DNA of 64,000 nt, taken from the NCBI GenBank assembly GCA_963794325.1, contig CAWCDG010000004.1, positions 512,001 through 576,000 of the forward strand. The letters are read 5' to 3'. A program made the position numbers and the translations under genes. This document shows positions 26,693-46,418 of the stretch, one piece after another; the first letter of the stretch is position 1; each line of letters opens with the position of its first letter. The notes under the pieces are model-generated. The model was not told the origin of the DNA. It searched no databases and saw only the letters and a list, made by a program, of their open reading frames with translations. The DNA comes from an uncultured delta proteobacterium. Lineage in GTDB: Bacteria; Desulfobacterota; Binatia; Binatales; Binataceae.

Positions 26693-28138
26693 TCAGAGTT
26701 CGGGACTCGAGGGCAGGAACGTCTCGCCCATCAGGTACGCGTCGACTGCGCGGGCGGCCTCGCGCCCCTCCCATATCGCCCACACTACCAGCGATTGTCC
26801 GCGACGCGTATCGCCGGCGGCGAAAACTCCCGGCACGCTCGACATGTAGTTCTCGCACTGCACATTGCTACGCGGATCGAGCTTGAGGCCGAGCTCGGAG
26901 ATTATGCCGTCGGGCTCGGGGCCGAGAAATCCTAGCGCGAGCAGCACGAGGTCGCACTCGATCTCGAAATCGGTGCTCGGAATTTGCTCCATCACCATGC
27001 GTCCGTTGTCATGCTTCCAGTTGAGCCGCACGCCATGGAGTTTCTTCACGACGCCATTTTCGCCCGAGAACTTGCTGGTGTTGATGCTCCAGTCGCGCTG
27101 CACGCCTTCTTCATGCGAGCTCGAAGTGCGCATGATCATCGGCCAGTCGGGCCACGGCATTTCGGCGGTGCGCTTCTCCGGCGGCATCGGAAGCAACTCG
27201 AACTGATGCACGACGATCGCACCCTGGCGATTCGAGGTGCCCAGGCAATCTGAACCCGTGTCGCCGCCGCCCAGAATGACCACGCGTTTTCCGTTCGCCG
27301 TGATCTCGGACGCCGGATCGAGCGCGTCACCGAAGTTGCGCTTGTTCTGTTGCGGCAGGAAGTCCATCGCGAAATGGATTCCCTTGAGCTCGCGTCCCGG
27401 GATCGGAAGATCGCGCGGCTTGGTCGCGCCCATCGTGAGCACGATCGCGTCGTATTTCGATCGCATCTCGTCGGCGTGGATGTCGATGCCGACGCGGCAG
27501 TTGGTGACAATGTCCAGGCCTTCGGCCCTCATCTGCTCGACGCGGCGGTTGACGATCCACTTTTCCAGCTTGAAATCAGGAATGCCGTACGTGAGCAGGC
27601 CGCCAACGCGATCCGAGCGCTCGTAGAGTGTCACCGAATGTCCGGCGCGCGTGAGTTGCTGAGCGCACGCGAGTCCCGACGGTCCCGAACCCACGACTGC
27701 AACAGACTTTCCTGATTTGCGCGCCGGCGGCAGCGGCACAATCCATTTTTCCGCCCACGCGTGATCGATAATGTTCTTTTCGATCAATTTAATCGTAACG
27801 GGATCGTTGTTGATGTTGAGTACGCAGGCTTCTTCGCACGGCGCGGGGCAAATCCTGCCGGTGAACTCGGGAAAGTTGTTTGTGGCGTGCAGCCGGTCAA
27901 TCGCCTCGCGCCACCTGCCGCGATAAATGAGATCGTTCCAATCCGGAATGATGTTCCCGAGCGGGCAACCCTTGTGGCAGAAGGGGATTCCGCAATCCAT
28001 GCAGCGGGCGCCCTGCGCGCGTAGCTTCTCTTCGGGCATCTTGAGATCGAACTCGCGCCAATCCTTCAGGCGTTCGCCGATCGGACGCCGCGAGGGAGTC
28101 TCGCGTTTGATCTCCATGAAGCCGGTGATCTTGCCCAT
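26693..28138 (-). CDS. gltD: glutamate synthase small subunit
   Basis: [35 protein letters not shown] and [11 protein letters not shown] motifs. Confidence 0.96.
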
Positions 28139-28143
28139 CGAAG

Positions 28144-31100
28144 CTAGACCGCCGCCAGCCGCGCGAGATCGGAATTCATGTTGAGATGCTGCCGTTCGAG
28201 CACCGCTCGATACTCAGTCGGCAATACCTTTACAAACTTCTTCGCATAGTCGTCCCACTTGTCGAGTATCTTTCGTGCGATCGTGCTCTCCGTGTACTGC
28301 TGATGCCGCACGATCAACGAATGCAGTTGCGTCAGCTCGTCGTGATTGCTCACTGCTCCAAGCTCAACCATTCCCGGATTGCATCGCGATGCGAACGAGC
28401 CGTCTTCGTCGAGCACGTACGCGACACCGCCGCTCATGCCAGCCGCGAAGTTGCGGCCGGTCCTGCCGAGCACGACGATCAGCCCGCGCGTCATGTACTC
28501 GCATCCATGATCGCCGACACCCTCGACGACGGCGTGCGCGCCGCTGTTGCGCACGGCGAATCGCTCGCCGGCCACGCCGCGGAAGAATGCTTCGCCGCCG
28601 GTTGCACCGTAGAGCGCGACGTTACCGATGATGATGTTCTCTTCGGCTTTGAAGGTCGCTTCTCTTGGCGGACGCACCGACATAAATCCGCCCGAGAGTC
28701 CCTTGCCGCAGTAGTCGTTCGCGTCGCCTTCAAGATAGAGCGCGACTCCCGGCGCGAGCCACGACCCGAAACTCTGGCCCGCTGAACCCTTGAGATGAAT
28801 TTGAACCGTGTAGGGCGGCAATCCCTCCGCGCCGAATCGCCGCGATACTTCCGCCGACAGCATCGTGCTGACGGTGCGGTTCACGTTGCGAATCGGCAGG
28901 TGAATTTCGACCGGCTCGCGCTGCTCGAGCGCATCTTTCGCCAGCTCGATGATCTGATTGTCGAGCGCCTTGTCGAGGCCATGGTCCTGCAACTCGACGC
29001 AGTGCAGCGGCTCGTCAGGGCCGACATCGGGACGGCGAAGAATGTTGGCGAGATCGACGTTGCGCGCTTTCCAATGCGCGATCGCTTCGTTGGCATCGAG
29101 ACATTCGACGTGGCCAACCATTTCGGCGAGCGTGCGGAAGCCCAACTGCGCCATGTATTCGCGCAATTCGTCCGCGATGAACATCATGAAGTTCACAACG
29201 TGTTCGGGCTTGCCTGCAAACTTCGCGCGCAGTACCGGATCCTGCGTCGCGATGCCGACCGGGCAGGTGTTGAGATGGCAGACGCGCATCATGATGCATC
29301 CCGAAGCGACCAGTGCAGCGCTCGCGAAACCGAATTCCTCGGCGCCGAGCAGCGCGGCAATTGCGACGTCGCGGCCGGTCTTGAGCTGGCCGTCGGTCTC
29401 GACGTGGATGCGTCCGCGCAGACCGTTCATCACGAGAGTCTGCTGCGTCTCGGCGAGTCCGAGCTCCCACGGAATTCCCGCGTGCTTGATCGATTGCAGC
29501 GGCGACGCTCCCGTGCCGCCGTCGTAACCGCTAATCAGCACGACGTCCGCCTTGGCCTTTGCGACTCCCGCCGCGATAGTCCCGACGCCGACCTCGGCGA
29601 CCAGCTTGACGCTGATGCGCGCGCGATTGTTGGAATTTTTTAGATCGTGGATCAGCTGCGCCAGATCTTCGATCGAATAAATGTCGTGATGCGGCGGCGG
29701 TGAGATCAACCCAACGCCGGGCGTCGAGTAGCGAATCTTCGCGATGAAATCATCAACCTTATGACCCGGTAGCTGGCCACCCTCACCCGGCTTGGCGCCC
29801 TGCGCCATCTTGATTTGCAGTTCGTCGGCGTTGACCAGGTAATGACTGGTGACGCCGAAGCGCGCCGATGCGACCTGCTTGATCGCGCTGCGGCGGAAGT
29901 CACCGTTCGCGTCGCGCACGAAGCGCGCAGGATCCTCGCCGCCCTCTCCGGTGTTGCTCTTGCCACCGATCCGGTTCATCGCAATCGCGAGATTTTCGTG
30001 GGCTTCCTTGCCGATCGAGCCGAACGACATCGCCCCGGTTTTGAAGCGTTTGACGATCTCGGTGGCTGGCTCGACTTCCTCGAGCGGCACCGACGGCCGA
30101 TTCGAATTGAACTTGAGCAGCGATCGCAAGGTGGCGAGCGATCGACTCTGCTCGTCAACCGCCTTGGTGTATTCCTTGAACAGCCGGAAATTTCCCGATC
30201 GCACCGAATGCTGCAGGCGCGCGATGGTGTTCGGATTGTACATGTGGAATTCGCCGGCGCGGCGCCACTGGTATTGGCCACCGACATCGAGCGCGCCATC
30301 GAGATTCGCCGCCACCTTGAACGCATAGCTGTGACGCTCCGCAGTCTCGCGCGCGATCGCGTCGAGACCGACGCCGGCGATGCGCGACGGCGTCCAGGTG
30401 AAGTACTTCTCGATCACGTCCTGTGACAGTCCGATCGCTTCGAAAATCTGCGCGCCGCGATAACTCTGCGTGGTCGAGATGCCCATCTTCGACGCGACTT
30501 TCGTGATGCTCTTGCCGACCGCTTTGACAAAGTTGTGGACCGCGGTGTCTTCGTCGATGTCCTTGAGCTGACCGTCGCGAATCATTCCCGCCATCGTCGC
30601 GTATGCGAGGTACGGGTTGACGGCGCCCGCGCCATAGCCGACCAGCAGGCAGAAATGCATCGCCTCGCGCGGCTCGCCTGACTCGACGACGATGCCGGCC
30701 CGGGTACGCGTCCCTTCGCGAATCAGATGATGATGTACGGCGCCGGTCGCGAGCAGCGCAGGAATCGCGGCGTAGTCGGCATTCACCCCGCGATCTGAAA
30801 GCACGATTATCGTGTACCCGGATTCGATCGCGTCGGAAGCGCCTTTACAAAGCGCGTCGAGCGCCGTTCGAAGACCGGCTTCGCCATCCGCGACGCGGTA
30901 CAGCGTCGAAAGCGTGATCGTGCGCAGACCCTCGACGTCGAGCCGTTTGATCCTTTCGAGTTCTTCGTTGGTGAGAATCGGCTGCTTAAGTTGAAGCTGC
31001 CGGCAATGTCGCGGCGATTCCTCGAACAGATTGTCCTCGGCGCCAATCGTCGTCTCGGTCGAGGTCACCAGCTCCTCGCGAATCGGATCGATCGGCGGAT

Positions 31101-32703
31101 TCGTCACCTGCGCGAATAACTGTTTGAAATAGTTGTAGAGCGGCTGCGATTTGTTCGACAGCACGGCGAGCGGAGTGTCGGTGCCCATCGAGCCGACCGG
31201 CTCCTGCGCGTTGGTCGCCATCGGCGCGAGGATCATTTTGAGATCCTCGATCGTGTAGCCGAACGACTGCTGCTGCTTAAGCAGCTCGCCGTCCTCGAAG
31301 CAGTCCACGGCCGGCGCGCCAGCCGCCTCGGGAAGCGAGTCGAGCCTGATGAGGCTATTGTCGATCCATTTGCGATACGGCTGCCGCGCCGCCATCGACT
31401 CCTTAATCTCTTCGTCCTGCACGATTCGGCCGAGCGACGTATCGATAAGAAACATGCGGCCCGGCTGGAGCCGTCCCTTGTGCGCGACGTTCTCGGGCGC
31501 GATGTCGAGAACGCCGGTCTCCGACGCCATCACGACCAGCCCGTCCTTCGTCACCGTGTAGCGCGATGGTCGCAGACCGTTGCGATCGAGCACCGCGCCA
31601 ATCCGAATTCCGTCGGTGAAAGCAATCGACGCCGGACCATCCCACGGCTCCATCATGCACGAATGAAAATGATAGAAGGCGCGCTTGCTGTCGCTCATCT
31701 GCGGGTCGTTCTGCCACGCTTCCGGAATCATCATCATCACCGCGTGCGGCAATGAGCGCCCAGTGCGGACCAGCAGCTCGAGACAGTTGTCGAAGGTGGC
31801 GGAGTCGCTGCCGTTGGGCTCGACGATCGGCAGCAGCTTCTTGATGTCGTCGCCGAACAGCGGCGAGGAAAACAGTTTCTCGCGCGCGACCATCCAGTTG
31901 ATATTGCCGCGCAGCGTGTTGATTTCGCCGTTGTGCGACATGAAGCGGTACGGATGCGCGCGGTCCCAGCTCGGGAACGTGTTGGTCGAGAACCGCTGAT
32001 GCACCATCGCGAGCGCAGTCTTGACCGCCTGGTTGCGCAAGTCGGGGAAGAACAGCGGAATCTGCGTCGAAATCAACTGACCCTTGTAAACGACGGTCAG
32101 CGCCGACAGGCTGCAGAAATAAAATAGCTCGGGATCGAACAGGCCGAGGGTTTCCGCCGCGGAAGTGGCGCGCTTGCGAATCACGTACAGCTTGCGCTCG
32201 AGCGCCTCGATGCCTTTGATGTCCGGACTTGCCGCGATGAACACCTGGCGGATCGCGGGCATCCCGCGCCGCGCGATATCGCCGCACTCGGATTCGACCA
32301 CCGGCACGTCGCGCCATCCGAGGATTCGCTGACCTTCCTCATTGACGATTTTCTCGAACGCGTCCTCGCACTCTTTGCGCTTGACCGCGTCGAGCGGCAG
32401 GAAAACCTGGCCGACGCCGTATTCGCCGGGCGCGGGCAGTTTGAATCCGATCCGCTCGGCCTCGCTCGCGAAAAAATCATGCGGAATCTGCATCAGGATT
32501 CCGGCGCCGTCGCCGGTGCGCGGGTCGCATCCGCACGCTCCCCGATGCGTCAGGTTGTCGAGCACCTGCAGCGCCTTGACGACGATGTCATGCGAGCGAT
32601 CGCCCTTGATATTGACGACGAAGCCGACGCCGCACGCGTCATGCTCGTGCGCGGGATCGTAGAGGCCCTGCTTTTTCGGAATGCTTCGATAGTTATGCAT
32701 CAT
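28144..32703 (-). CDS. gltB: glutamate synthase large subunit
   Basis: [43 protein letters not shown]. Start at ATG 32703 overlaps the lrp stop. Confidence 0.96.
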
Positions 32704-33263
32704 GACACCCGCCTTGGATCCGGCGGCGCGGATTTCGCAGCTGCGTGGCGATGCCGTCTGCCGTTGGCGGGCTCGTGCGAGTCGCCATTGGTATGCACTG
32801 AGATCAGACCGCGCTCGGTATGCGTCGACAGCACCACCATCGTCTCCGTCCGCGCCACTCCCTCGATCGAGCGGATCGCGCTGATGAGCCGCTCGAGCGA
32901 CGAAGTGTTCTCGGTTTTGACTTTCATCATGAGGGTGTGCTCGCCGGTGACGTGATGGCATTCGAGGACGTCGTCGAGCAGCGCGACGGATTCCTCGAAC
33001 AGCGAAATTGTTTTCGGATGCGCGATCGACACGCCGATGAAAGCGGTCACGTCCTTGCCAAGACGCGTCGCATCGACCGTGGCGTGATAGCCGATGATGA
33101 CGCCGCCGTCCTCGAGTTTTTTGACGCGCTCGTTGACCGAAGGCGCCGACAGCCCGACGTGCTCGCCGAGCTTGACGAGCGGAATCCTGCCGTGTTCCTG
33201 CAGCAGAGCGATAATCTGCAGGTCGATAGCATCGAGTTCGGGGGAATCACCGCCGAATTTCAT
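32700..33263 (-). CDS. Lrp/AsnC-family transcriptional regulator
   Basis: [28 protein letters not shown] and ECHHVTGE motifs. Confidence 0.92.
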
Positions 33264-35715: not shown

Positions 35716-37155
35716 TTACGAATGCGGGTAGGCGTCGCTTCCCATTTCTAGCGCATCGAGGCCCGACCATTCCACTTCCACCAGCACGCGGTTGCCGACG
35801 GTGCGCTCGACGATTTTGAAGAACAGCATCGCCAGTCCGAATACCACGACGATGTTCACCGTCACGCCGATCAGCTGCGCGAAAAATTGGCCGACGTCGC
35901 CATAGAGCAGCCCCGTCACTGGACCGGCGACGCCGTTCCATCCATCGCCGTAGGTGCCGTCGGCAAACAGGCCGAGTGCGAGCGCGCCCCATATTCCGCA
36001 TGCGCCATGGACGGCGATCGCGCCGACCGGATCGTCGATTCGGAAGCGGCGTTCGATCTCGAGGACTGCCCACACCACCAGCAGTCCCGCAACGGTTCCG
36101 ATCAAAACCGCGGCCGCCGGCGTTACGAATGCGCATGGGGCGGTGATCGCGACGAGTCCGCCGAGCAGGCCGTTGCTGGCCATCGCGATGTCGGGCTTGT
36201 TGTAGCGATGCCACAGATAGAGCAGTGCCGCGAGCGCTCCGGCGGCCGACGACAGCATCGTGTTCACGCCAATGATCGCGATTCGTGGATCAGATGCGGC
36301 CAACGTCGAGCCGCAGTTGAAGCCGAACCATCCGAACGCGAGTATCAATGTTCCGCTCACAGCCATCGGCAGGTTGTGTCCCGGCAGAGCGCCGATTGTG
36401 CCGTCGCGCCGGAATTTTCCGATGCGCGGGCCCACCATGTAAGCGCCGGCGAGTGCGGTCACTCCGCCCGTCATATGCACGACTGACGATCCCGCGAAAT
36501 CGAGATGTCCGTGGCCGAGGCCCAGATTGACACCGAGCTGCGAGAGCCATCCGCCGCCCCACACCCAGTTGCCGTACAGCGGGTAGAGGAACATCGACAT
36601 GAAAATTCCGTAGATGAAGAACGCTTTGAACTTCCATCGCTCGGCCATCGCACCGGTGGGAATGGTCGCGGCGGTGTCCATGAACACCAGCGTGAATAGA
36701 AACATGCCGAGGCTCGCCGGATCGCGGCTGACGTTGAGCAGCGCGAACTTGCTGAACCCGAGGATGCCGTACGAATGCGCCCCGATTGTGATCGACAGCT
36801 CGTGATGACCGATCGCGCCCATGCCGAGGGACGGCCAATGCGCGACGCCGCCCATCATGAAGCCGTAGCCGGTGAGCCAAAACCCGAGGATGCCGATCGG
36901 ATAGATGATCAGGTTCATCGCCATGGTATTGACCGCGTTCTTGGAGCGCGTGAACCCGGTCTCGACCATCGCGAATCCGAGCTGCATGAACATCACAAGG
37001 AAGCCGGCGACCAGCAGCCATGCGAGATTCAGTGAATTGTCCAGCGGTGGCGACGACGCGGCGGTCTGCGCATTCGCGACAACGGGAAAGGCGAAAAGCG
37101 CCGGCGCAATGAAAACCGCGGCGACCAATCCGGGTTGCGATCGTCTCGGCATCAT
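35716..37155 (-). CDS. amt: ammonium transporter (Amt), copy 1
   Basis: FMQLGFAMVETG, DFAGSSVVH, WFGFN and DDPVGAIAVHG; twin His intact; ATGA overlap with the kinase stop. Confidence 0.93.
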   Translation of the reverse strand: MMPRRSQPGLVAAVFIAPALFAFPVVANAQTAASSPPLDNSLNLAWLLVAGFLVMFMQLGFAMVETGFTRSKNAVNTMAMNLIIYPIGILGFWLTGYGFMMGGVAHWPSLGMGAIGHHELSITIGAHSYGILGFSKFALLNVSRDPASLGMFLFTLVFMDTAATIPTGAMAERWKFKAFFIYGIFMSMFLYPLYGNWVWGGGWLSQLGVNLGLGHGHLDFAGSSVVHMTGGVTALAGAYMVGPRIGKFRRDGTIGALPGHNLPMAVSGTLILAFGWFGFNCGSTLAASDPRIAIIGVNTMLSSAAGALAALLYLWHRYNKPDIAMASNGLLGGLVAITAPCAFVTPAAAVLIGTVAGLLVVWAVLEIERRFRIDDPVGAIAVHGACGIWGALALGLFADGTYGDGWNGVAGPVTGLLYGDVGQFFAQLIGVTVNIVVVFGLAMLFFKIVERTVGNRVLVEVEWSGLDALEMGSDAYPHS

Positions 37156-38168
37156 CTCGTCTGCCCTCGATATGACCGGCGCGGAGGAGTTTTCGCCGCC
37201 GGGAAACGGTTTGCGAGCCAAATCAGGAATAGAAATGCTCCAATGAGTGACGTGAAAAACGCTACGTAGCCAAGCCGGCGGCGCATGTTCTGCATCGCGA
37301 GGCTGCGTGGATGGAGGTGCTCGGCGCGATTCTGCGGGACGACCCGCGATGGATCGCGCAGGTCTTCGATCATCTGGCCGGCCGTAGCATAGCGGTCGCG
37401 CGGATTGCGCTCGATCGCATGGAGCACGATCTCTTCGAGCTTGGGATCAAGATCCGGCTTGAATGCGCTCGGCGGCTGCGGATCTTCCGCGGTCTTGGAG
37501 CGCATCACGTTGTAAACATTGGGGCCCGAGTATGGCAGGTGGCCGGTCAGCATTTCGTAGAGAATCACGCCGAGCGAATAGACGTCGGTGCGGACGTCGC
37601 CGCGCCGGCCGCTGACCTGCTCGGGCGCCATGTAGTCGGGAGTGCCAATCGTCGATGACAACCCGGACCAGGTCAGTCGCCGCGCGGATTCGTCGAGCGC
37701 GATTCCGAAGTCCATGATCTTGGTCTGCCCTTCGGCGGTCACCAGGATGTTTTCCGGCTTCAGATCGCGATGCACCACGCCTTCGCCGTGCATGTACACG
37801 AGTGTCTCCGCCAATTGGCGCGCGAGACCAAGCGCCCGTTCCGCCGGCATCCCGTCGGCGCTGCGCATCAACGCGCGCAGCGAATCGCCCTCGATGTACT
37901 CCATCGCGATGTACATGCGGCTCTTCTTTCGCGGCGCGAGAACCTTGACGATGCCCGGATGGTTGAGGCGGAGCCCGACTTCCTCTTCGCGCTGAAAGCG
38001 GCCGTAGAAAACCACGTCGCTCTCGAACTGCATGTAGGGGACTTTGATCGCGACGGTGTTGCCGTCGATTTGATCGATGGCTTTGAAGATCGACGCCATC
38101 CCGCTGCGCGCGATCACCTCGATCAACTTGTACTGATCGAGGTTTTCACCGACGCTGACCTCGCGCAT
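37152..38168 (-). CDS. Hanks-type Ser/Thr protein kinase with C-terminal TM anchor
   Basis: VAIK, HRDLKPEN, DFG, GTPDYMAPE and DVYSLG; hydrophobic C-terminal helix. Confidence 0.93.
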   Translation of the reverse strand: MREVSVGENLDQYKLIEVIARSGMASIFKAIDQIDGNTVAIKVPYMQFESDVVFYGRFQREEEVGLRLNHPGIVKVLAPRKKSRMYIAMEYIEGDSLRALMRSADGMPAERALGLARQLAETLVYMHGEGVVHRDLKPENILVTAEGQTKIMDFGIALDESARRLTWSGLSSTIGTPDYMAPEQVSGRRGDVRTDVYSLGVILYEMLTGHLPYSGPNVYNVMRSKTAEDPQPPSAFKPDLDPKLEEIVLHAIERNPRDRYATAGQMIEDLRDPSRVVPQNRAEHLHPRSLAMQNMRRRLGYVAFFTSLIGAFLFLIWLANRFPAAKTPPRRSYRGQTR

Positions 38169-38245
38169 TTTGTAGACCGTCTCGGGGTAAAAGGGTCAGC
38201 GGACGTTAACATCCGGCACTCCGCCAAGGGAAGGGCCCGACGGCT

Positions 38246-39073
38246 TCATCGCCGGAACAATCGGCTCAGGCGGTCGCGCCAGCCGCCCGTCGCCGCTGTG
38301 TGGCCGGTGTGGGAGGTCATGCGGAAGACTGCGCAGGTCAGGTTGTCGCGCGTGCCGCGACTGTTGGCGGTATCGATCAGAGTGCGGCAGGCGGTTTCGG
38401 CGTCGACGTCGCGGGTTAGCGATTCGAGTTCCTTGTCTTCGAGGGTGTTGTAGAGGCCGTCGCTGCATAGGATCAGCCGGTCGCGTTCCATCAGCGGCAG
38501 AGTGATTCGATCGATCGACGCTATCAGCTCGCGACCAAGGCTGCGCAGAAGCATCCCGCGCTCGGGATGAGTCTTCGCGCGCGCGGCGGTCATCAGGCCC
38601 AGCCTGACCTTGTCTGCGACCATCGTGTGATCTTTGGTGACCACCGAGATTGAGCTGTGGCGAATCAGGTGCAACCGGCAATCTCCGATATGCACCGCCG
38701 ACAGAATCCCCTTGTCGACTGCGACCGCCGTCATCGTGGTCGCCATGCGCGACAGTTCCGGCACGGTCAGCGCCTTGTCATGAATTCCGATATTGGCCCG
38801 TGTGATCGCGCGATAGAGCCGCTTGGCCGATCCCCAAGCCGGCGGGCTTTCGCGGTAAGCTTCGAGCAGGATGTCGACCGCCATCCGGCTGGCGATTTCG
38901 CCGCCTTCGTAGCCGCCGACGCCGTCGGCGACCGTGAACACCACGCTGTCAGGACTCTCGATGTAATGACCGCACGAGTCTTCATTGTCGGGCCGTGTCG
39001 TGCCGACATCGGACAGCAGCGCCAATTCGAATGCCTGCTCCGCAGAAGGAGGAGCGGAAATTGGCGAATCCAT
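38246..39073 (-). CDS. PP2C-family Ser/Thr phosphatase
   Basis: NED, VADGVGG, GDCR, LCSDGL and DN motifs. Confidence 0.93.
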   Translation of the reverse strand: MDSPISAPPSAEQAFELALLSDVGTTRPDNEDSCGHYIESPDSVVFTVADGVGGYEGGEIASRMAVDILLEAYRESPPAWGSAKRLYRAITRANIGIHDKALTVPELSRMATTMTAVAVDKGILSAVHIGDCRLHLIRHSSISVVTKDHTMVADKVRLGLMTAARAKTHPERGMLLRSLGRELIASIDRITLPLMERDRLILCSDGLYNTLEDKELESLTRDVDAETACRTLIDTANSRGTRDNLTCAVFRMTSHTGHTAATGGWRDRLSRLFRR

Positions 39074-39133
39074 TTCCGGCAAACTACCCAGAGAAACGAC
39101 CTGACGTAAAGTCGATTAGGAGTGAACGGCCAA

Positions 39134-39165
39134 GGGGCGGGCCGCGATCGCTCGCGGCTCGCCCC
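39134..39165. other. strong GC hairpin between the APC permease and PP2C genes
   Basis: GGGGCGGGCCGCG-N6-CGCGGCTCGCCCC; no clear U-tract. Confidence 0.45.
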
Positions 39166-39198
39166 AGGGATTTATTCGCCAGACCAGCCTGTTCGGGA

Positions 39199-40854
39199 TC
39201 AGGCGGGCTTGGTTACGAGAATCGTCTCTTTGCCCTTCTTCTTCGAGTTACGTAGGAAGTAAATCGCTCCGTAGATTCCCCAAATCACCGAGATGCCAAC
39301 TGCCATCAGCGGTTCCTTCACACTGCCGAGTCCTTCGATTGGCCCGATGATGTAGAACGCCATGCAGGCAAAGTTCGCAATCGCGCCGAAAACCGGGATG
39401 ACCATGTGCTTGAAGCCGCTGAATTCGTGGTGTTCGCGGAAGGCTACAATGGCGACGATATTGGTCAGTCCGTACAGCGCGAAGGTGCCAAAGTTTGAAA
39501 CCAATGTCACCAGGGCCAGTCCGTTGGGCAGCGATGACAGCGACGCGTTGGAGCTCATTCCGACCGCATACCAAAGGTTGTGCGGCAGGGTCGCGATAGT
39601 CTTGTCATCCGGGGCTGCCGAGCCGGCGAAAAAGTATAGTGCAGCGTATGCGCCGAGGACCGCCGAAATCGTGGCGAGCGTCCAGATTGCGCGATGCGGC
39701 GTGAGGTTCTCGCCGTGGAGAATTCCGAAATGCTCCGGCACTTCGTCATCCCGGCCCATTGCGTAGGTCACGCGGGCACCGGTGTTGATGCAACTCAATG
39801 TCGTTCCGATCAGGGCAAGGAACACCGTCAGGGCTTCCATGAGCATGAAGGCCTGCCCGTGCCCGCCTAACAGCGCGTTCCCAAGGATCACCATCATGTC
39901 GCCGATCGGGGCCGCAGATCCTTTTGCATCCGCAAGGCTGTATGCACTGCTCAGGAAATAGTTAGCCGCGAAGTATTCGATCAGGTAGCAGAACAAGCAT
40001 TGGATCGTCAGCGAGAGTATGACGGCGCGCGGGATATCGCGTTTCGGGTTCAACGCTTCCTCACCGAGCGAGGTGACTGACTCAAAACCAACCAGCAGCA
40101 GGATAGCTACCGTCGCCTGAAGCATCACCCAGTTGAAGTTGTGCGGAAGTATTACCGACAACGCGCTCGTATGAGACGGCGTGTCGCCGGTCAGAGAGTA
40201 GTGCAGGACCTTCGAGGTTCCGTCCAGGGCGAGACCCGTCGAGCCGTCGGGATGTCCCAGGCGGTAGGCGATCGCCAACGCCGAAAAGAACAGCAGCGCG
40301 ATGATCTGAATCGCGTTGATCGCGATGTTGACGTTGGTCGAACCGTTGACGCCCTGAAACGCGATCCACGCGACCGCGTACGAGAAAACGATCGCAACCA
40401 GCGCCATGAAGACCGGCCCGGGCACGCCCGCGTTCATCGTCGAAGGCGCGACGCTACCGACGATGTAGCCGATCATTACGCCCATGGTCGCGACCATCAC
40501 GCCTGGATAGACCCAGTAGTAAAGGTGCGACGCCCACCCAATTGTGAATTTCGCGATGCGTGCAAACCGGTATGCGTGGGTCTTGCCGAGGAACGCCTGC
40601 TCGGCAAAGAGATACGAACTGCCTGCCCCTGGATAGAGTTTGGCCAATTCCGAGTACGAGATCGCCGTCGCATATGCCAGCACCAAGGCCGCGAAGATTC
40701 CTGCCCACATAGCGAGACCAGACGGATATGCGTATCCAGCCTGCACGACAAACGTGATCCACAGGAAAGCTCCTGGGGCGATGAGCGCCATCGCATTGAC
40801 CGTGACTCCGGTCAAGCCGAGGGTCGGCACCATCTTTTTCTGTTCTTCAGCCAT
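39199..40854 (-). CDS. APC-superfamily permease
   Basis: Multi-TM; ELAKLYPGAGSSY, GFESVTSLGEE..NPKRDIPRA and ARVTYAMGRD; GGAGG RBS. Confidence 0.9.
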   Translation of the reverse strand: MAEEQKKMVPTLGLTGVTVNAMALIAPGAFLWITFVVQAGYAYPSGLAMWAGIFAALVLAYATAISYSELAKLYPGAGSSYLFAEQAFLGKTHAYRFARIAKFTIGWASHLYYWVYPGVMVATMGVMIGYIVGSVAPSTMNAGVPGPVFMALVAIVFSYAVAWIAFQGVNGSTNVNIAINAIQIIALLFFSALAIAYRLGHPDGSTGLALDGTSKVLHYSLTGDTPSHTSALSVILPHNFNWVMLQATVAILLLVGFESVTSLGEEALNPKRDIPRAVILSLTIQCLFCYLIEYFAANYFLSSAYSLADAKGSAAPIGDMMVILGNALLGGHGQAFMLMEALTVFLALIGTTLSCINTGARVTYAMGRDDEVPEHFGILHGENLTPHRAIWTLATISAVLGAYAALYFFAGSAAPDDKTIATLPHNLWYAVGMSSNASLSSLPNGLALVTLVSNFGTFALYGLTNIVAIVAFREHHEFSGFKHMVIPVFGAIANFACMAFYIIGPIEGLGSVKEPLMAVGISVIWGIYGAIYFLRNSKKKGKETILVTKPA

Positions 40855-40936
40855 CTTGCCTCCTTCGATTCACGGCGGAGGTTTGTCCGCCGCGGCGCGC
40901 GTCGCTCCCGTTACGGGCGGGAGCACAGAGGCTCAA

Positions 40937-40952
40937 AGCATGAAAAGTGCCA
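40937..40952 (-). promoter_or_regulatory. sigma54 (-24/-12) promoter upstream of the APC permease
   Basis: Minus strand TGGCAC-TTTTC-ATGCT (GG-N10-GC). Confidence 0.65.
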
Positions 40953-41204
40953 TTTTAAAAACGAATGAATACCGATGAAAAATGCAACGCAGTGCACAAA
41001 GGAAAGGCACCCGCCTGTTTGACAGTCATCAGCGCGGTAAAATCCGGTCCTCAGTACTCTCTAATTGGCCAGCGACTCGAACCGCCAGTTAGCCAGGCCG
41101 GCCCCGAGTCGGTGGCTGATTCCGACTGAGGCCGGCCCGTTGGTTCCGTGCGCATGGATGACTCCCGTAAAGTCTCCATGCTGCAGCCCACATCGCGAAG
41201 GTTC

Positions 41205-42761
41205 CTATGCCACCTTCTTTTGTTTTGAAGGCCGGGCCATGGTGCGCCTGCCGACGGGTACGTCGTCGATCGTCTTGGGACATCCGTCGTCGCCGGTGAC
41301 TACGTATTCCGGGTACGCCGGGAAGCCGTGCTCGCTGAGATCGAGTCCTTCGATTTCCCCTTCGGTCGGGATGCGCAGTCTGAAGGCGTATTTGACTCCA
41401 TACATCAGCGCCATCGAGGCCACGAAGGTTGCTATCGTAATCGAGAAGCTGCCGATCATTTGTGCTTTCAGAACACCAAAGCCGCCGCCGTAGAACAGTC
41501 CCGTGACTACGCTGCTGGTGTCCGCTCCGGTCGCAGTCGGCGCACCGTACTTGCCGGCGGCGAAGAGCCCCAGCGAGAGCGTGCCCCAGATTCCCGCGAT
41601 CATATGCACCGGGACGGCGCCAATCGGATCGTCGATGCGCAGGTATTCGAGCAAGTCGATACCCCAGACCACCACGAGGCCGGCGCCGATGCCGAGCAGA
41701 AACGCGCCTTCGGGATCGACCCAGTAACAGGGACAGGTGATCGCAACGAGGCCCGCCAGGAATCCGTTAACCGTCAGCGCGAGATCCCATTTGCCAGCCT
41801 TGTAGTACGAATAGAAGAGCGAGGTCAGTCCTGCCGAGCATGCGGCGATGGTCGTGTTGAACGAAACGCGGCCGATGCCCTGCGCGTCCATTGCGGACAG
41901 CGTGCTGCCCGGATTGAATCCGTACCATCCAAACCAAAGGATCAGACCGCCGGTCGCGCCGATGATCAAATCGTGCGGTTTCATCGGTGCGCCGCCATCG
42001 CGTTTGAAGACCCGGCCGAGGCGAGGTCCGAGCGCGATTGCGCCGGCCAGTGAGATCGTTCCGCCGATCGTGTGCACGACGGTCGATCCGGCGAAGTCGT
42101 GGAAGTTAACCGGGTTCAGGTTCGCCAGCCATCCGTCCGGACCCCATGCCCAGTGACCGATGATCGGGTAGATGAAGCCGGTTACGCCGACGCTGTAGAG
42201 CAGGTCGCCAATGAAGTCGCATCGACCAATCATCGCGCCCGAGGTTACCGTCGAGCAGGTGTCCGCGAACGCATACTGGAAGACCCAATACGCGAGCAGC
42301 GGAACGCCGGTGGTGCCGTAGGTCGGGGCGAGTCCATGCAGCATGAAGCCGGTGGTGCCGATCCACGGCGTCCCCGGACAGAACATGAATGCGAAGCCCC
42401 ATAGCCAGAAGGTCACGCCGCAGATGCAGGTGTCGGCGATTCCCTCGACGAGGATGTTTACCGTCTCGCGCGATCGGGCGAATCCCGACTCGAGCATGAC
42501 GAAGCCGACCTGCATGCAGAACACCAGGTACGCCGCGACCAGCGTCCATACGGTGTTGATCGCGTTGACTTGCGGCGGAGGCAGCGCTGGCGCAGCGTCT
42601 GCGTATGCCATCGCCGGCAGGTACCATTTTGAAATCAGCAAGAGAACGAGCCCGAGCCCGATCATCTTGCCTGCCATCAGGTAACCCGCGTTGCGGCGGA
42701 CCATCGGGTCTCGCCAGCTTTCGCGGATTCTCTCCCACAATCCTGTTGCTCCTGAGTACAT
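41205..42761 (-). CDS. amt: ammonium transporter (Amt), copy 2
   Basis: MQVGFVMLESG, DFAGSTVVH, WYGFN and DDPIGAVPVH; GGAGG RBS before ATG 42761. Confidence 0.93.
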   Translation of the reverse strand: MYSGATGLWERIRESWRDPMVRRNAGYLMAGKMIGLGLVLLLISKWYLPAMAYADAAPALPPPQVNAINTVWTLVAAYLVFCMQVGFVMLESGFARSRETVNILVEGIADTCICGVTFWLWGFAFMFCPGTPWIGTTGFMLHGLAPTYGTTGVPLLAYWVFQYAFADTCSTVTSGAMIGRCDFIGDLLYSVGVTGFIYPIIGHWAWGPDGWLANLNPVNFHDFAGSTVVHTIGGTISLAGAIALGPRLGRVFKRDGGAPMKPHDLIIGATGGLILWFGWYGFNPGSTLSAMDAQGIGRVSFNTTIAACSAGLTSLFYSYYKAGKWDLALTVNGFLAGLVAITCPCYWVDPEGAFLLGIGAGLVVVWGIDLLEYLRIDDPIGAVPVHMIAGIWGTLSLGLFAAGKYGAPTATGADTSSVVTGLFYGGGFGVLKAQMIGSFSITIATFVASMALMYGVKYAFRLRIPTEGEIEGLDLSEHGFPAYPEYVVTGDDGCPKTIDDVPVGRRTMARPSKQKKVA

Positions 42762-42851
42762 CGATCGTTTCCCTCCGAAAGTTGGTTTTGGCGTTGGCCT
42801 GCGCGCCACCGCGCGGCGCGACGGACGCCTGATCGCGCCGCATGGTGTGAG

Positions 42852-42867
42852 AGCAAGACGTATGCCT
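42852..42867 (-). promoter_or_regulatory. sigma54 (-24/-12) promoter upstream of amt copy 2
   Basis: Minus strand AGGCAT-ACGTC-TTGCT (GG-N10-GC). Confidence 0.6.
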
Positions 42868-43076: not shown

Positions 43077-43697
43077 TCAGCGACTGCGATCGAGTACCGC
43101 GACCATACCGGTCTTGATCGCGTAATGCGTCAGCTCGAGACGATCGCGCACGGCAAGCTTTTGAAAAATATTGTTGAGATGAGTTTTGACGGTACTCTCG
43201 GTTATCGAGAGTCGATCTGCAACTTCGATATTCCTCAGGCCAGAAGCCACATAGCGAACAATTTCGGATTCTCGCGGCGTCAATTCCTTACCGCTCGAAC
43301 TTTCCTGTCGCGCAAATTCCGTTTGCACCATCGGCGGCATCCAGACCAAACCATCCGCGACCGATCGCAAAGCCATCATCAGGGTCTCGATCGCAAATCG
43401 CTTCTGCACGACGCCCTTGGCGCCGAGGCGCAGGGCTCTGACCCCATTTTCGGCGCTCTCGCTCGCAGTCAGCACGATCACGTTGGTCAGACGGCTGAGT
43501 CGCGGGATGTCTTCCATCATCCAACGGTCCATCTGCAGGTCGAGTAGAAGGATGTCGCAGTCGGTCGCGGAAACCACCGGAGCTACATCATCTGAGGATT
43601 CTATTTCAGCGACGACCTGGGTATCCGGTTGAAGCAGCAGCAGCGACTTGAGCCCTTGCCGGAAGAGGGCGTGATCGTCGGCGATAATTAAACGCAT
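43077..43697 (-). CDS. NarL/LuxR-family response regulator
   Basis: IADDH, LLDLQM and LTPRESEI..VASG..N..VA..L.I...TVKTH motifs. Confidence 0.93.
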   Translation of the reverse strand: MRLIIADDHALFRQGLKSLLLLQPDTQVVAEIESSDDVAPVVSATDCDILLLDLQMDRWMMEDIPRLSRLTNVIVLTASESAENGVRALRLGAKGVVQKRFAIETLMMALRSVADGLVWMPPMVQTEFARQESSSGKELTPRESEIVRYVASGLRNIEVADRLSITESTVKTHLNNIFQKLAVRDRLELTHYAIKTGMVAVLDRSR

Positions 43698-43705
43698 TAG
43701 TGTTG

Positions 43706-44788
43706 CTATATCTGACTGTTAGGAAGCTCGATTTGCAGCCGCGTGCTGCCATCGCTGTGCATGCTCATGTGCCCTTCCAGTTCCGCGACTCTCGAGGCTA
43801 TCGCCCATGGCCGCGACGACGAGTCCGACAAGCCCACGCCGTCATCCTCGATAGTGATCGAAACCTTGTCCTCGACCTCGTGCACGTCGATTCTTACCAG
43901 GTTAGCCAGTCCATGGCTTCGTGAATTGCGGAGACCTTCAAGCATGATCTGCAGTATATGCTCGCCGAGGAGACTGCCTCCACTGAAGTCGGCTCGAACC
44001 TCAAAGCTTGGATCGGAACTGCGCGCGGCGAATTCCGCCGCGGGTCTCTGCTCGATGCCGGCGAGCGAGCGCAGATAGATTCGAACCGCATCGTACTCCC
44101 GCGCAACGCCGGCTTGCAGGTCAGTGATTTCTGTCAGCGCATCTTGAGGACGATTGCGACTCAGTAGCGCGCGACAGGTCTCGAGCCGCAGGTTCACTCC
44201 GGCCAGGGCCTGCACGTAACCGTCGTGCAATGAACGGGCGATTGATTGCCGCTCGGTGCGAGTTTCGAGCTCGCGTAGCTCTGCCTCAAACAGGGCGCGC
44301 TGTTGCGAGAAGAATCCAATCAAATATCCGGCGATCGCAAGATAGACCGCCCGCATATCGTAAACACTGGTGATTCCTTGAGTCAGCACTATCACCAGCA
44401 AATACAGCGCCACGCTGCAAACCGTCACGGTTGCTATAGGACGCGAGCGGGCGCGGTTTCCGGCGGCGATAATCGCGAAGACAAAGAATACGTACGAAGC
44501 GCTGGTTTGTCCTTCGGTTATGAATGCGATCGCGGTCGCGAAGAACAGGTCGAAGCAGGTTGAAAGCACCTGTAGATTCCAGTCCGAATATCGGCGGCTC
44601 AGCGCGAAATACATTCCGATGCTGTACGCCAGATGGCACAGGAGGGTCGTCAACGCGTAGGCGTTCAGATGAAACAGGCCGCCAGCGGTGCTCGGATCGA
44701 TATACAGGGACAGCATCGCGATCAGCGACAGCGCGATTCGCGCTCGAGCGATGCTCAAATCCAGATTCTGGAACGCAGGCAGGTTCAT
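43706..44788 (-). CDS. membrane sensor histidine kinase (HisKA_3 type)
   Basis: Multi-TM N-terminus, IARSLHD H-box, EGLRN N-box, DDGVG. Confidence 0.85.
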   Translation of the reverse strand: MNLPAFQNLDLSIARARIALSLIAMLSLYIDPSTAGGLFHLNAYALTTLLCHLAYSIGMYFALSRRYSDWNLQVLSTCFDLFFATAIAFITEGQTSASYVFFVFAIIAAGNRARSRPIATVTVCSVALYLLVIVLTQGITSVYDMRAVYLAIAGYLIGFFSQQRALFEAELRELETRTERQSIARSLHDGYVQALAGVNLRLETCRALLSRNRPQDALTEITDLQAGVAREYDAVRIYLRSLAGIEQRPAAEFAARSSDPSFEVRADFSGGSLLGEHILQIMLEGLRNSRSHGLANLVRIDVHEVEDKVSITIEDDGVGLSDSSSRPWAIASRVAELEGHMSMHSDGSTRLQIELPNSQI

Positions 44789-44888: not shown

Positions 44889-46418
44889 TTACGATTTCGC
44901 TCGCGAGCGGGGAATTCCGAGCGCCACCATCAATAGCGGACTCTTTCCCGCGGCGTGAGGTTCGAAAAATTTCGTGGTGTCGTCGTCGTAGAAGGTGAGT
45001 CCAGTCGCGCCGCGGCCGAGCGAATACGCAGCAAGGTATGCGCGGCCGCCGAGAATTCCCGCCTCGAGATGCGCATCGCCATAGCCGCGATTTCCCAACG
45101 CGCCCAGCGCGCGCTCGAGATCGGCCATATAGACCACCAGCGCGGAACAATCCATGCCGAGCGGCTGTTCGAGGCACAGGTATCCCGCCTCGCCGCGGAA
45201 GTTTCCCGGTTTCAGCAACTCGAACGCGTGCGCTGCGCGGTTATAGTAGTACGCGCCGGGCTCTAATCCTTCCGCCGCGTTGACGATCAGGTAAGTGTCA
45301 GTCAGTGGCGGAAAGTCGGCCTGCGGATGGTCGCTCGATGCCGCCATGATCGTCGCGAGTTCTTCGGCGGTAATCGCTTCTTGCGCAAACGCTCGCGACG
45401 ATCCGCGCCGCAAAATTGTTTCACCAAGTCCCGCGGACTCCTCCGACGTGATCGTTTCCAGATGAAGCCCATCCACGCTCGGCGATCGCGGCGTTGGTTC
45501 CACTTTCGCAGTGGCGACCGTCGCGACTTCGTCTGCGGTGACAAGGCGCGACTCGCCATGCATCTTAATGAGATCAGGATACGCGACCTCTTTCGACGAC
45601 AGCGGGATCGATTCCAGCGTTAGTGGCTCGGCCGCAGGTGACGATGCGGCCGGGTCGTCGCTGCGCCCGAGCGCGACCAGCGCGATCATTCCTTCATGCT
45701 CGCCGTCGATTCCAAGCAGCGCTTCGAGCGCGGGATCCTCGAATGCGGTGATCACTTCCGCAGAAATTTCCTCGGCCGCCGCCGCTGCCAGCAGATTCGC
45801 CAGGATAGTTCCCGCGTCCCAATAGCAATACCGGTATGCCCGCGCGCGATACTTCCATTCGCTGCGCCAGTAAATCGCCGACATCGCGATCACCGCGCGC
45901 GCGTTGCGAATCGACGGGCGTTTTGCGGTCGCGTCCGCAATGTACGAGCGCCAGTCGCCGCGACGCAGCCCACACATCCGCAGATCGGCAGGCGAAAAGT
46001 GGTACAGGCCCGCCTCGAGCCCTTCGACCTCTGATGCTGCGACGTAGATCTCGATCGGGTAGAGCGCGCCCGCCGACGCCGCGGCGCGGAAATGATAGTC
46101 GTCCGCGCCGACCCGCTTCTGCCGCGTCAGACCGTCAGCACAAAACAGAATTCTGATCAGCGCGGCCTCGTCGATAGGTGCTGAAAAGTCCGCCGGCACG
46201 TAAGACGACAATGCCGCCAGCGCCGGCGTCGAGGACAGATTGAGATCGCGCGGCAATGCTACCGACGCGGCGCCCGGATAAATCTTGTACGGGATCGGCT
46301 TGATGTCCCAATCGAGGAAGTGCGGCGACGATCGGACGCTGGTGTACGAATGCTTGGTGATCTCGTGGAAGACCCGCGCCGCTTCGATGTAGTCGTTGCC
46401 CATCACTTCTCCAAACAT
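44889..46418 (-). CDS. SagB/ThcOx-type tandem nitroreductase-fold protein
   Basis: R..ASAGALYP.E.Y, WKYRARAYRYCYWDAG, and a second domain R.S.R...RGY...EAG. Confidence 0.85.
   Translation of the reverse strand: MFGEVMGNDYIEAARVFHEITKHSYTSVRSSPHFLDWDIKPIPYKIYPGAASVALPRDLNLSSTPALAALSSYVPADFSAPIDEAALIRILFCADGLTRQKRVGADDYHFRAAASAGALYPIEIYVAASEVEGLEAGLYHFSPADLRMCGLRRGDWRSYIADATAKRPSIRNARAVIAMSAIYWRSEWKYRARAYRYCYWDAGTILANLLAAAAAEEISAEVITAFEDPALEALLGIDGEHEGMIALVALGRSDDPAASSPAAEPLTLESIPLSSKEVAYPDLIKMHGESRLVTADEVATVATAKVEPTPRSPSVDGLHLETITSEESAGLGETILRRGSSRAFAQEAITAEELATIMAASSDHPQADFPPLTDTYLIVNAAEGLEPGAYYYNRAAHAFELLKPGNFRGEAGYLCLEQPLGMDCSALVVYMADLERALGALGNRGYGDAHLEAGILGGRAYLAAYSLGRGATGLTFYDDDTTKFFEPHAAGKSPLLMVALGIPRSRAKS

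Follow-up and report, generated by a model that had tools for sequence, protein, structure and literature searches.

The 64,000-nucleotide stretch of DNA analyzed here (the window) spans positions 512,001–576,000 of contig C4 (CAWCDG010000004.1) in the genome of an uncultured delta proteobacterium of the Binataceae (GCA_963794325.1; 4.45 Mb, 10 contigs). Between positions 35716 and 42809 its minus strand encodes an ammonium transporter of the Amt family (amt2), an APC-superfamily permease, a PP2C phosphatase, a tail-anchored Hanks-type Ser/Thr kinase, and a further ammonium transporter (amt1), as assigned from the listing of open reading frames and from Pfam. The APC-PP2C-kinase-amt1 part of this series is a module: a real unit of inheritance tied to nitrogen transport and, very probably, a set of genes that function together in nitrogen transport or sensing. 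The recurrence of this gene set across many phyla suggests phosphorylation control of nitrogen uptake in some bacteria, in a manner analogous to that of plants and yeast. A preliminary description of this DNA had reported five co-oriented genes, an overlap of the kinase stop codon with the amt1 start, a membrane-anchored kinase without an extracellular sensor, the lack of a PII gene beside either amt, and closeness to lrp-gltBD. We confirm each of these points: all five genes lie on the minus strand, the two codons share the bases ATGA, the kinase ends in one helix and a short tail, the window has zero P-II matches, and Lrp, gltB, and a gltD-like gene are found downstream.

A scan with the kinase of one genome per species gave 598 or more relatives; 79 loci, from the best 80 matches, were kept, and several of these are cut by contig ends. 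These loci (L numbers; genomes and contigs carry G and C numbers) were scored by tblastn with the window's own proteins at E ≤ 1e-8 and at least 40% query coverage, a setting that distant partners may escape. The kinase relatives span about ten phyla. PP2C is found at 63 of the 79 loci, the APC permease at 55, an Amt at 53, and PII at 20; nine loci have none of these four partners. At the 22 loci that we grouped ourselves as Binataceae-type, from identity and record titles, the corresponding counts are 21 for PP2C, 20 for APC, 21 for Amt (at most 250 nt downstream), and 3 for PII. The 42 loci from other phyla have PP2C at 35 (fused to the kinase at 29), APC at 28, Amt at 20, and PII at 14. Judged by record titles, carriers include Binataceae, Polyangia, Anaeromyxobacter, Gemmatimonadales, Planctomycetia, Tepidisphaerales, Acidobacteria, Verrucomicrobiae, Opitutaceae, Chthoniobacterales, Nitrospirota, Geomonas, Desulfobacteraceae, Baltobacteraceae, and Roseiarcus, with Anaeromyxobacter oryzisoli SG63 (L040) and Geomonas sp. 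Red32 (L075) as cultured representatives. The order of the genes is rearranged at some loci, yet the set remains grouped: the genes are divergent in L032, L040, L044, and L054, and run kinase-amt-APC-PP2C in L034. Because it is kept across phyla, this adjacency is far above chance.

The gene that accompanies the kinase most constantly is that of the APC permease, and not an Amt gene. Among 121 genomes from the order to which G268 (the genome of L053) belongs, eight have the APC permease and the same eight have a fused PP2C-kinase, adjacent in every case; the other 113 have neither. In a sample of the class Binatia (n = 151), 25 genomes have the kinase and 21 the APC permease, all 21 falling inside the 25. 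The two genes lie within 5 kb of each other on one contig in 17 of the 20 other genomes that have both, and on separate contigs in G170, G137, and G200; the genomes with the kinase only are G204, where the match is near a contig end, G236, G121, and G154. Thirteen genomes of the Binatia sample, this one included, have a gene of the amt1 type (at least 70% identity), and in all 13 the kinase lies directly upstream of it (12 of 12 when the unpublished G204 is excluded). The APC subfamily was absent from samples drawn evenly across phyla (0 of 120 and 0 of 150 other genomes); the module is thus patchy, or rare on that scale. Conserved synteny of kinase, PP2C, APC, and Amt, which the preliminary description had set as a test of its proposal, is strongly upheld by the 79 loci together with the order and class samples.

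Some loci hold further genes beside the module. A gene for a BBP2 (OmpL-like) β-barrel porin is present at 13 of them (for example, L081:3972-5117) and lies between APC and PP2C in some Binataceae (L016:4959-6404). At 12 loci there is a 108-residue, four-helix membrane protein (L055:5249-5575) with a weak YnfA/UPF0060 match (24.2 vs 24.9 bits), mostly directly 3′ of the kinase and in several loci between kinase and Amt. In two relatives, module genes are broken, by either assembly indels or decay: at L020:5305-9015 APC, PP2C, and kinase are each split into two overlapping open reading frames, and at L026:8948-10449 the amt1 orthologue is split in two.

The kinase consists of a catalytic domain, a linker of about 25 residues, one hydrophobic helix, and 16 terminal residues, and the C-terminal anchor is present in almost all 79 relatives. 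Its Pkinase match lies above the cut-off, and the Lys, HRD-x-K-x-x-N, DFG, and APE motifs of Hanks-type kinases are all present; across 26 orthologues the catalytic residues K42, H133-R134-D135, K137, N140, D153-F154-G155, and the segment TPDYMAPE, with A181-P182-E183, are invariant. PknB kinase domains are the closest PDB structures (2e-53). The score against the PknB/Stk1 PASTA kinase model NF033483 is 287.3 vs a cut-off of 450, with positions 7–276 of the 563 in that profile matched, which sets this kinase outside the PASTA class. An R-L-x-P-type juxtamembrane motif, seen by eye, recurs on the N-terminal side of the anchor across phyla; a regular expression for it, which was too strict, matched 21 of the 79 relatives. 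The glycine-rich loop of the subfamily (residues 20–27) is an invariant A-R-S-G-M-A-S-I/L instead of G-x-G-x-x-G, in the fused forms also.

The phosphatase belongs to the PP2C/PPM family, with metal-binding motifs NED, DGVGG, GD, and DN visible in its translation, and falls short of the cut-off of the Stp1/IreP equivalog NF033484 (202 bits vs 230). Its closest PDB matches are 5iti, 2j82, 2j86, 2y09, and 2xzv (E about 1e-34 to 1e-35), which we take to be structures of tPphA, with Stp1 and PstP structures ranking lower (about 1e-27 to 1e-28; 124 vs 102 bits). PP2C and kinase share one open reading frame at 29 of the 79 loci, as a PP2C-kinase-anchor protein of about 600 residues, and all four fused frames that were scanned contain both Pfam domains. 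Carriers of fused forms (G268:C5:251246, G268:C4:454248, and others) also have one or two stand-alone kinase paralogues of 358–402 residues that are 54%–60% identical, and the kinase-only loci L072, L073, L083, and L084 have none of the partner genes of the module.

Among the 63 Amts from the loci, a quick IQ-TREE run places 31 kinase-adjacent Amts of Binataceae and Myxococcota, amt1 included, in a single clade with an approximate likelihood-ratio (SH-aLRT) support of 100. None of these 31 has an adjacent PII gene, vs 12 of 30 among the other Amts. Outside this clade, Amts at most 1.2 kb downstream of a kinase occupy four further positions in the tree, namely a six-row clade from Nitrospirota and Desulfobacterota, L070, L045, and L042, so that different Amts were recruited to the module more than once. 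The pore histidines H227 and H383 of amt1 are invariant in 26 orthologues and align to the His positions of structures 6eu6 and 8qj3. Members of the clade end 2–3 residues (amt1 itself 3) past a conserved C-terminal region, EVEW-x-GLD-x-LEMG-[S/T]-[D/E]-AYP. Within this region lies Ser473, a candidate phosphosite: its column is Ser or Thr in 32 of 33 kinase-adjacent Amts, the unrelated L070 included, vs 0 of the 30 other Amts of the loci.

The APC permease represents a distinct and strongly conserved subfamily, with 53%–60% identity over the conserved parts between phyla; five carrier genomes from other lineages have one copy each. Long forms have a variable loop insert between the conserved halves. 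All subfamily and equivalog cut-offs tried (TIGR00909, BcaP, CAT, and others) were missed by far, the best score being 95.7 vs 556.8 bits, and generic names alone occur among the 120 listed homologues and Atlas clusters. A second candidate phosphosite, Ser537, sits in the basic C-terminal tail of this permease, at a position that is Ser or Thr in 51 of 51 aligned orthologues across phyla. At nine loci from four lineages (L010, L024, L046, L049, L050-L053, and L061), a PII gene lies directly 5′ of APC and co-oriented with it. This order mirrors glnK-amtB and by analogy suggests a nitrogen-compound transporter gated by PII. Tandem APC copies stand upstream of PP2C in two relatives (L009:2316-5888 and G220:C2:574020-578125), and G196 and G220 have additional copies elsewhere.

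The five genes of the preliminary description are co-oriented but make up at least two transcription units, with a GC-rich hairpin and a sigma-54-type promoter separating amt2 from the rest. In 18 of 21 Binataceae regions a TGGCA[CT]-N5-NTGC motif precedes APC by about 70–160 nt, against a genome-wide background of 0.008 per 380 nt; one of the three regions that have no motif offered merely 57 nt to search. The genome also contains rpoN (214.5 bits), so that both motif and gene of a sigma-54 (NtrC-type) regulon are present. Across the window the motif count is at chance level (65 vs 61 expected), and weight therefore rests only on the conserved position upstream of APC. Upstream of amt2, the sigma-54-type match has two mismatches. 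We infer that APC-PP2C-kinase-amt1 is one sigma-54-dependent operon, with amt2 as its own unit, and this operon is probably induced under nitrogen limitation.

The genome has three Amt genes and two P-II genes (C4:1788716 and C2:43140), both outside the window. The third transporter gene, amt3 on contig C2 (L005, G000:C2:42832-47145), is followed by a gene for a 165-residue TPR-repeat protein and then by a GlnK-like PII. A PII gene next to an amt, the arrangement typical of GlnK-AmtB, is thus absent from amt1 and amt2 and found for amt3 alone, with the TPR gene in between. The T-loop residue at position 49 is Ser in the amt3-linked PII and Ala in the PII at C4:1788716, and GlnD is present (760 bits). 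The earlier wording “without GlnK” consequently applies to the neighborhood of amt1 and amt2 but not to the genome, with its GlnD and amt3-TPR-PII set, or to the related loci, 20 of which have PII.

The same description had put forward the Thr-containing tail of amt2 as a target. This proposal is not borne out, and we dropped the tail as prime phospho-target: amt2-type genes are found in only 5 of the 79 loci, all of them close relatives, behind their own two-component system, which leaves amt2 outside the conserved module. The column presumed to be equivalent to plant Thr460 is Ser in two of the five locus orthologues and in the window's own amt2. The histidine kinase-response regulator pair upstream of amt3 (G000:C2:46809-48496) is a paralogue of the pair in the window, with 50% identity for the HisKA_3 protein and 57% for the NarL-type protein, and hence two of the three Amt genes have a two-component system of their own.

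Considered together, these data lead us to rank highest, if tentatively, a model in which a membrane-proximal phospho-switch acts on amt1 and/or the APC permease. A single C-terminal helix would tether the sensor-less kinase to the inner side of the membrane, and kinase and PP2C would together provide a reversible Ser/Thr phospho-switch on the transporters encoded with them. Candidate sites are Ser473 of amt1, in the C-terminal region through which the subunits of Amt trimers are coupled, and Ser537 of APC; phosphorylation would turn uptake off or on, independently of a GlnK plug. That the transporters themselves are the phospho-targets we hold to have somewhat less than an even chance. The model starts from gene content, linkage, PP2C-kinase fusion, catalytic motifs, the promoter motif, and clade-specific residues, all of which are observed; nitrogen regulation, the transporters as substrates, the residues targeted, and the direction of the effect are what we infer. 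Complex prediction for monomeric amt1 (alignment A2) with the kinase (A1) gave scores of 0.00 and 0.01, which speak neither for nor against any reading.

Several results weigh against such a switch. None of the analyses made here identified a substrate of the kinase. The APC-PP2C-kinase core stands without any Amt in view at 26 of the 79 loci, which means that Amt is not the sole or universal target; conversely, L006 and G170 keep kinase-amt1 with no adjacent PP2C or APC. Ser or Thr at the Ser473 column is enriched in kinase-adjacent Amts, not unique to them: it also occurs in about 13 of 81 motif-bearing Amts among the best 150 representatives from a library of 1.8 billion proteins, one of the 13 being a spurious regular-expression match and one probably a member of the amt1 clade itself. 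The 31 kinase-adjacent Amts are a single clade, so that the shared residue reflects one or two evolutionary events, not 32, and Ser473 presumably falls at another alignment position than the plant regulatory threonine, Thr460. Between phyla, the membrane helix of the kinase shows poor conservation, as expected of a plain anchor more than of a helix that docks specifically onto another. Finally, amt1 and amt2 could be controlled in trans by GlnD and the GlnK-like PII linked to amt3.

The next reading in our ranking, which we consider doubtful, reverses the direction of signaling. Here, amt1 and/or APC would report substrate availability or flux to the kinase, and kinase and PP2C would pass the signal on to different targets, for the most part in the cytoplasm (assimilation enzymes or regulators, for example), with the transporters as inputs, not substrates. 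Neither kinase nor PP2C has a sensing domain of its own, and the juxtamembrane motif before the kinase anchor recurs across phyla, both of which speak for this reading, as do the longer homologues of amt1: among the 120 listed of 223, most are Amts fused to a histidine kinase, GGDEF/EAL, MCP, or cyclase domain, and two carry a SpoIIE-type PP2C. A Hanks kinase domain is found in none of these 120 fusions. The structures closest to amt1 and amt2 favor this reading too: they are 6eu6, which we take to be Ks-Amt5, and 8qj3/8qpf, both ahead of AmtB (for amt1, 4.5e-67, 3.7e-59, and about 1e-46, respectively). 8QJ3/8QPF is the receptor Sd-Amt1, according to the available part of the paper that also gives an N1/N2 signature for receptor Amts, Q-X6-E-X15-N-X2-D-[F/T]-X54-60-T-X2-[S/T] (PMC11152129). 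This signature, in the form in which that part of the source gives it (PMC11152129), is present in 0 of the 63 locus Amts. At N1/N2, amt1 has N-x-x-I-Y, lacking the Asp-Phe/Thr pair throughout its clade, and amt2 has G-x-x-D-T, lacking the Asn. All amt1 pore residues checked are kept, a neutral observation since receptors keep these too, and the module encodes no downstream target. Transporters as sensors are thus plausible in kind, yet they fail the sole published test of membership among receptor Amts.

That the genes are co-regulated neighbors only, kinase and PP2C acting on targets unrelated to the transporters (for instance in the envelope or in growth control, like pairs of the PknB/PstP type) within a mere shared nitrogen-regulated operon, is improbable in our judgment. 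It would suit the similarity of kinase and PP2C to the generic PknB/Stk1 and Stp1 families, the partnerless loci, and the stand-alone subfamily paralogues that lack partners, among them additional copies in genomes such as G268 and G516. The linkage patterns are not readily accounted for by shared regulation alone, however: APC and PP2C-kinase are gained and lost together in the order sample (both in 8 of 8, neither in 113 of 113) and in all 21 Binatia genomes with APC, the kinase adjoins amt1-type genes in 13 of 13, different Amt clades and PII were recruited repeatedly, and rearranged, divergent orders still hold the set together. We rank lowest, as the least probable of the four readings, a cycle in which kinase and PP2C phosphorylate and dephosphorylate Ser49 in the T-loop of a PII docked on APC or Amt, which would bring PII gating under phospho-control as in cyanobacteria. 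The nine PII genes directly 5′ of APC, among the 20 loci with PII, point in this direction, as do the Ser residues at T-loop position 49 in many PIIs near the module and in the amt3-linked PII, and the ranking of the presumed tPphA structures above those of Stp1 and PstP as matches to PP2C. Cyanobacteria have PphA as their PII-P phosphatase, with tPphA as the homologue in Thermosynechococcus elongatus; the PII kinase had never been purified or identified, as stated in the portion of a 2019 review available to us (PMC8042125). Against this, 59 of the 79 loci, like the window, have no PII gene; the presence of GlnD means that the usual uridylylation route exists; and the margin among the PDB matches is modest. 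Ser49 was tried as a discriminator of module-linked PIIs and rejected: PIIs linked to an Amt at these loci share it, and Ala, Leu, or Arg takes its place in some module-linked PIIs. If true, this reading would name the kinase class for PII Ser49 and would make PII gating of transporters phospho-controlled in many non-cyanobacterial phyla.

Positions of the module and of the features around it are given in the table below. The shared or abutting coordinates of kinase and amt1 recur in genomes of the same genus. On the 3′ side of amt1 lie an enoyl-CoA hydratase gene, Lrp (32700-33263), gltB (28144-32961), and the gltD-like gene (26693-28138). Upstream, at 44889-46418, the window encodes a 509-residue protein with two nitroreductase-like domains, whose position 5′ of the module is conserved in Binataceae, at 15 related loci; in L006 this double-nitroreductase gene abuts the kinase directly, histidine kinase, response regulator, amt2, APC, and PP2C all being gone. 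Elsewhere on the same contig (G000:C4:1136661-1141203), three Hanks kinases and a PP2C form another cluster, unrelated to the module.

Features of the module and its surroundings, in window coordinates
Feature	Position	Strand	Basis or remark
amt1 ammonium transporter	35716..37155	-	Pfam Ammonium_transp PF00909, 362.8 bits (cut-off 23.2); TIGR00836, 377.4 vs 343.3
amt1 Ser473 codon, candidate phosphosite (EMG-S-DAYP), cytoplasmic C-terminal region	35737..35739	-	Conserved Ser/Thr column
Kinase TGA/amt1 ATG overlap, ATGA	37152..37155	-	Translational coupling
Hanks-type Ser/Thr kinase	37152..38168	-	Pkinase, 162.7 bits (cut-off 31.7)
Kinase transmembrane anchor, residues about 300–322	37203..37271	-	Top hydropathy window from residue 301; RRR precedes
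PP2C/PPM Ser/Thr phosphatase	38246..39082	-	PP2C_2, 63.9 bits (cut-off 24)
APC-superfamily permease	39199..40854	-	AA_permease_2, 75.8 bits (cut-off 27); AA_permease, 49 (cut-off 24.6)
APC Ser537 codon, candidate phosphosite, basic C-terminal cytoplasmic tail	39244..39246	-	Just after last helix
Sigma-54-type promoter, TGGCAC-N5-ATGC	40938..40952	-	84 nt 5′ of APC ATG
GC-rich hairpin, likely transcript boundary	41096..41138	-	Minimum free energy -38.3 kcal/mol; 67 nt past amt2 stop; no U-tract
amt2 ammonium transporter	41205..42809	-	PF00909, 360.3 bits (cut-off 23.2); TIGR00836, 380.9 vs 343.3
NarL-type response regulator	43077..43697	-	Pfam; upstream of amt2; context, outside module
HisKA_3 histidine kinase	43706..44788	-	Pfam; upstream of amt2; context, outside module

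Plant AMT1 is phosphorylated in its C-terminal region at Thr460 by CIPK23, and yeast Npr1 acts on both Mep2, of the Amt family, and Gap1, of the APC family. The module resembles these systems in placing Amt and APC families under what would be one Ser/Thr kinase, with a candidate site in the Amt C-terminal region; it differs in its unrelated, tail-anchored PknB-like kinase and its operon-encoded PP2C. With GlnK-AmtB it shares an Amt with a dedicated, co-transcribed regulator at the cytoplasmic face, in a genome that also holds GlnD and amt3 with its PII, whereas amt1 is partnered by a Hanks kinase and PP2C, and no PII adjoins amt1 or amt2. Both Ks-Amt5 (Amt-histidine kinase) and Sd-Amt1 (Amt-HAMP-GGDEF) likewise pair an Amt with a signaling enzyme and are the closest structures, but in those receptors the transducer is fused to the Amt C terminus; here it is a Ser/Thr kinase from a separate upstream gene, amt1 stops 3 residues past AYP, and the N1/N2 signature is lacking. 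The cyanobacterial PII Ser49 cycle offers a PP2C in nitrogen signaling, the best PDB similarity of the PP2C, and Ser49-type T-loops nearby, in contrast to a window with no PII gene and to non-cyanobacterial hosts with GlnD. PknB/PstP and Stk1/Stp1 are likewise neighboring pairs of PP2C and single-pass membrane Hanks kinase, and provide the closest kinase domain; the kinase of the module differs in having no PASTA or other extracellular domain, a variant glycine-rich loop, another gene context, and frequent fusion to PP2C. PA1782-type “bifunctional kinase/phosphatase” genes, which we believe to lie in proteobacterial nitrate-assimilation clusters, would also be similar in gene context, with a PP2C-Hanks kinase beside a transporter for a nitrogen compound. 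PA1782 appears, in the section of the source that we cite, as a Ser/Thr kinase of P. aeruginosa, the third, that is unstudied (PMC8560001). A search of the full-text literature, which left most subscription journals outside, turned up no account of a Hanks kinase and PP2C paired with an Amt or APC permease in bacteria.

The standard teaching is that GlnK gates ammonium transport in bacteria, and a 2026 structural paper, in the part available to us, presents GlnK as the bacterial strategy and phosphorylation of Amt/Mep proteins as the plant and fungal solution (PMC13745463). With the module, bacteria abundant in soil and peat, among them Binatia, Myxococcota, Verrucomicrobiota, Acidobacteriota, Nitrospirota, and Planctomycetota, would have a second logic of nitrogen uptake or sensing, one that resembles that of eukaryotes. 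The module includes a dedicated clade of Amts, free of PII neighbors, that is found in two phyla, and it offers mutable candidate sites, two cultured carriers, and a possible route to a PII kinase.

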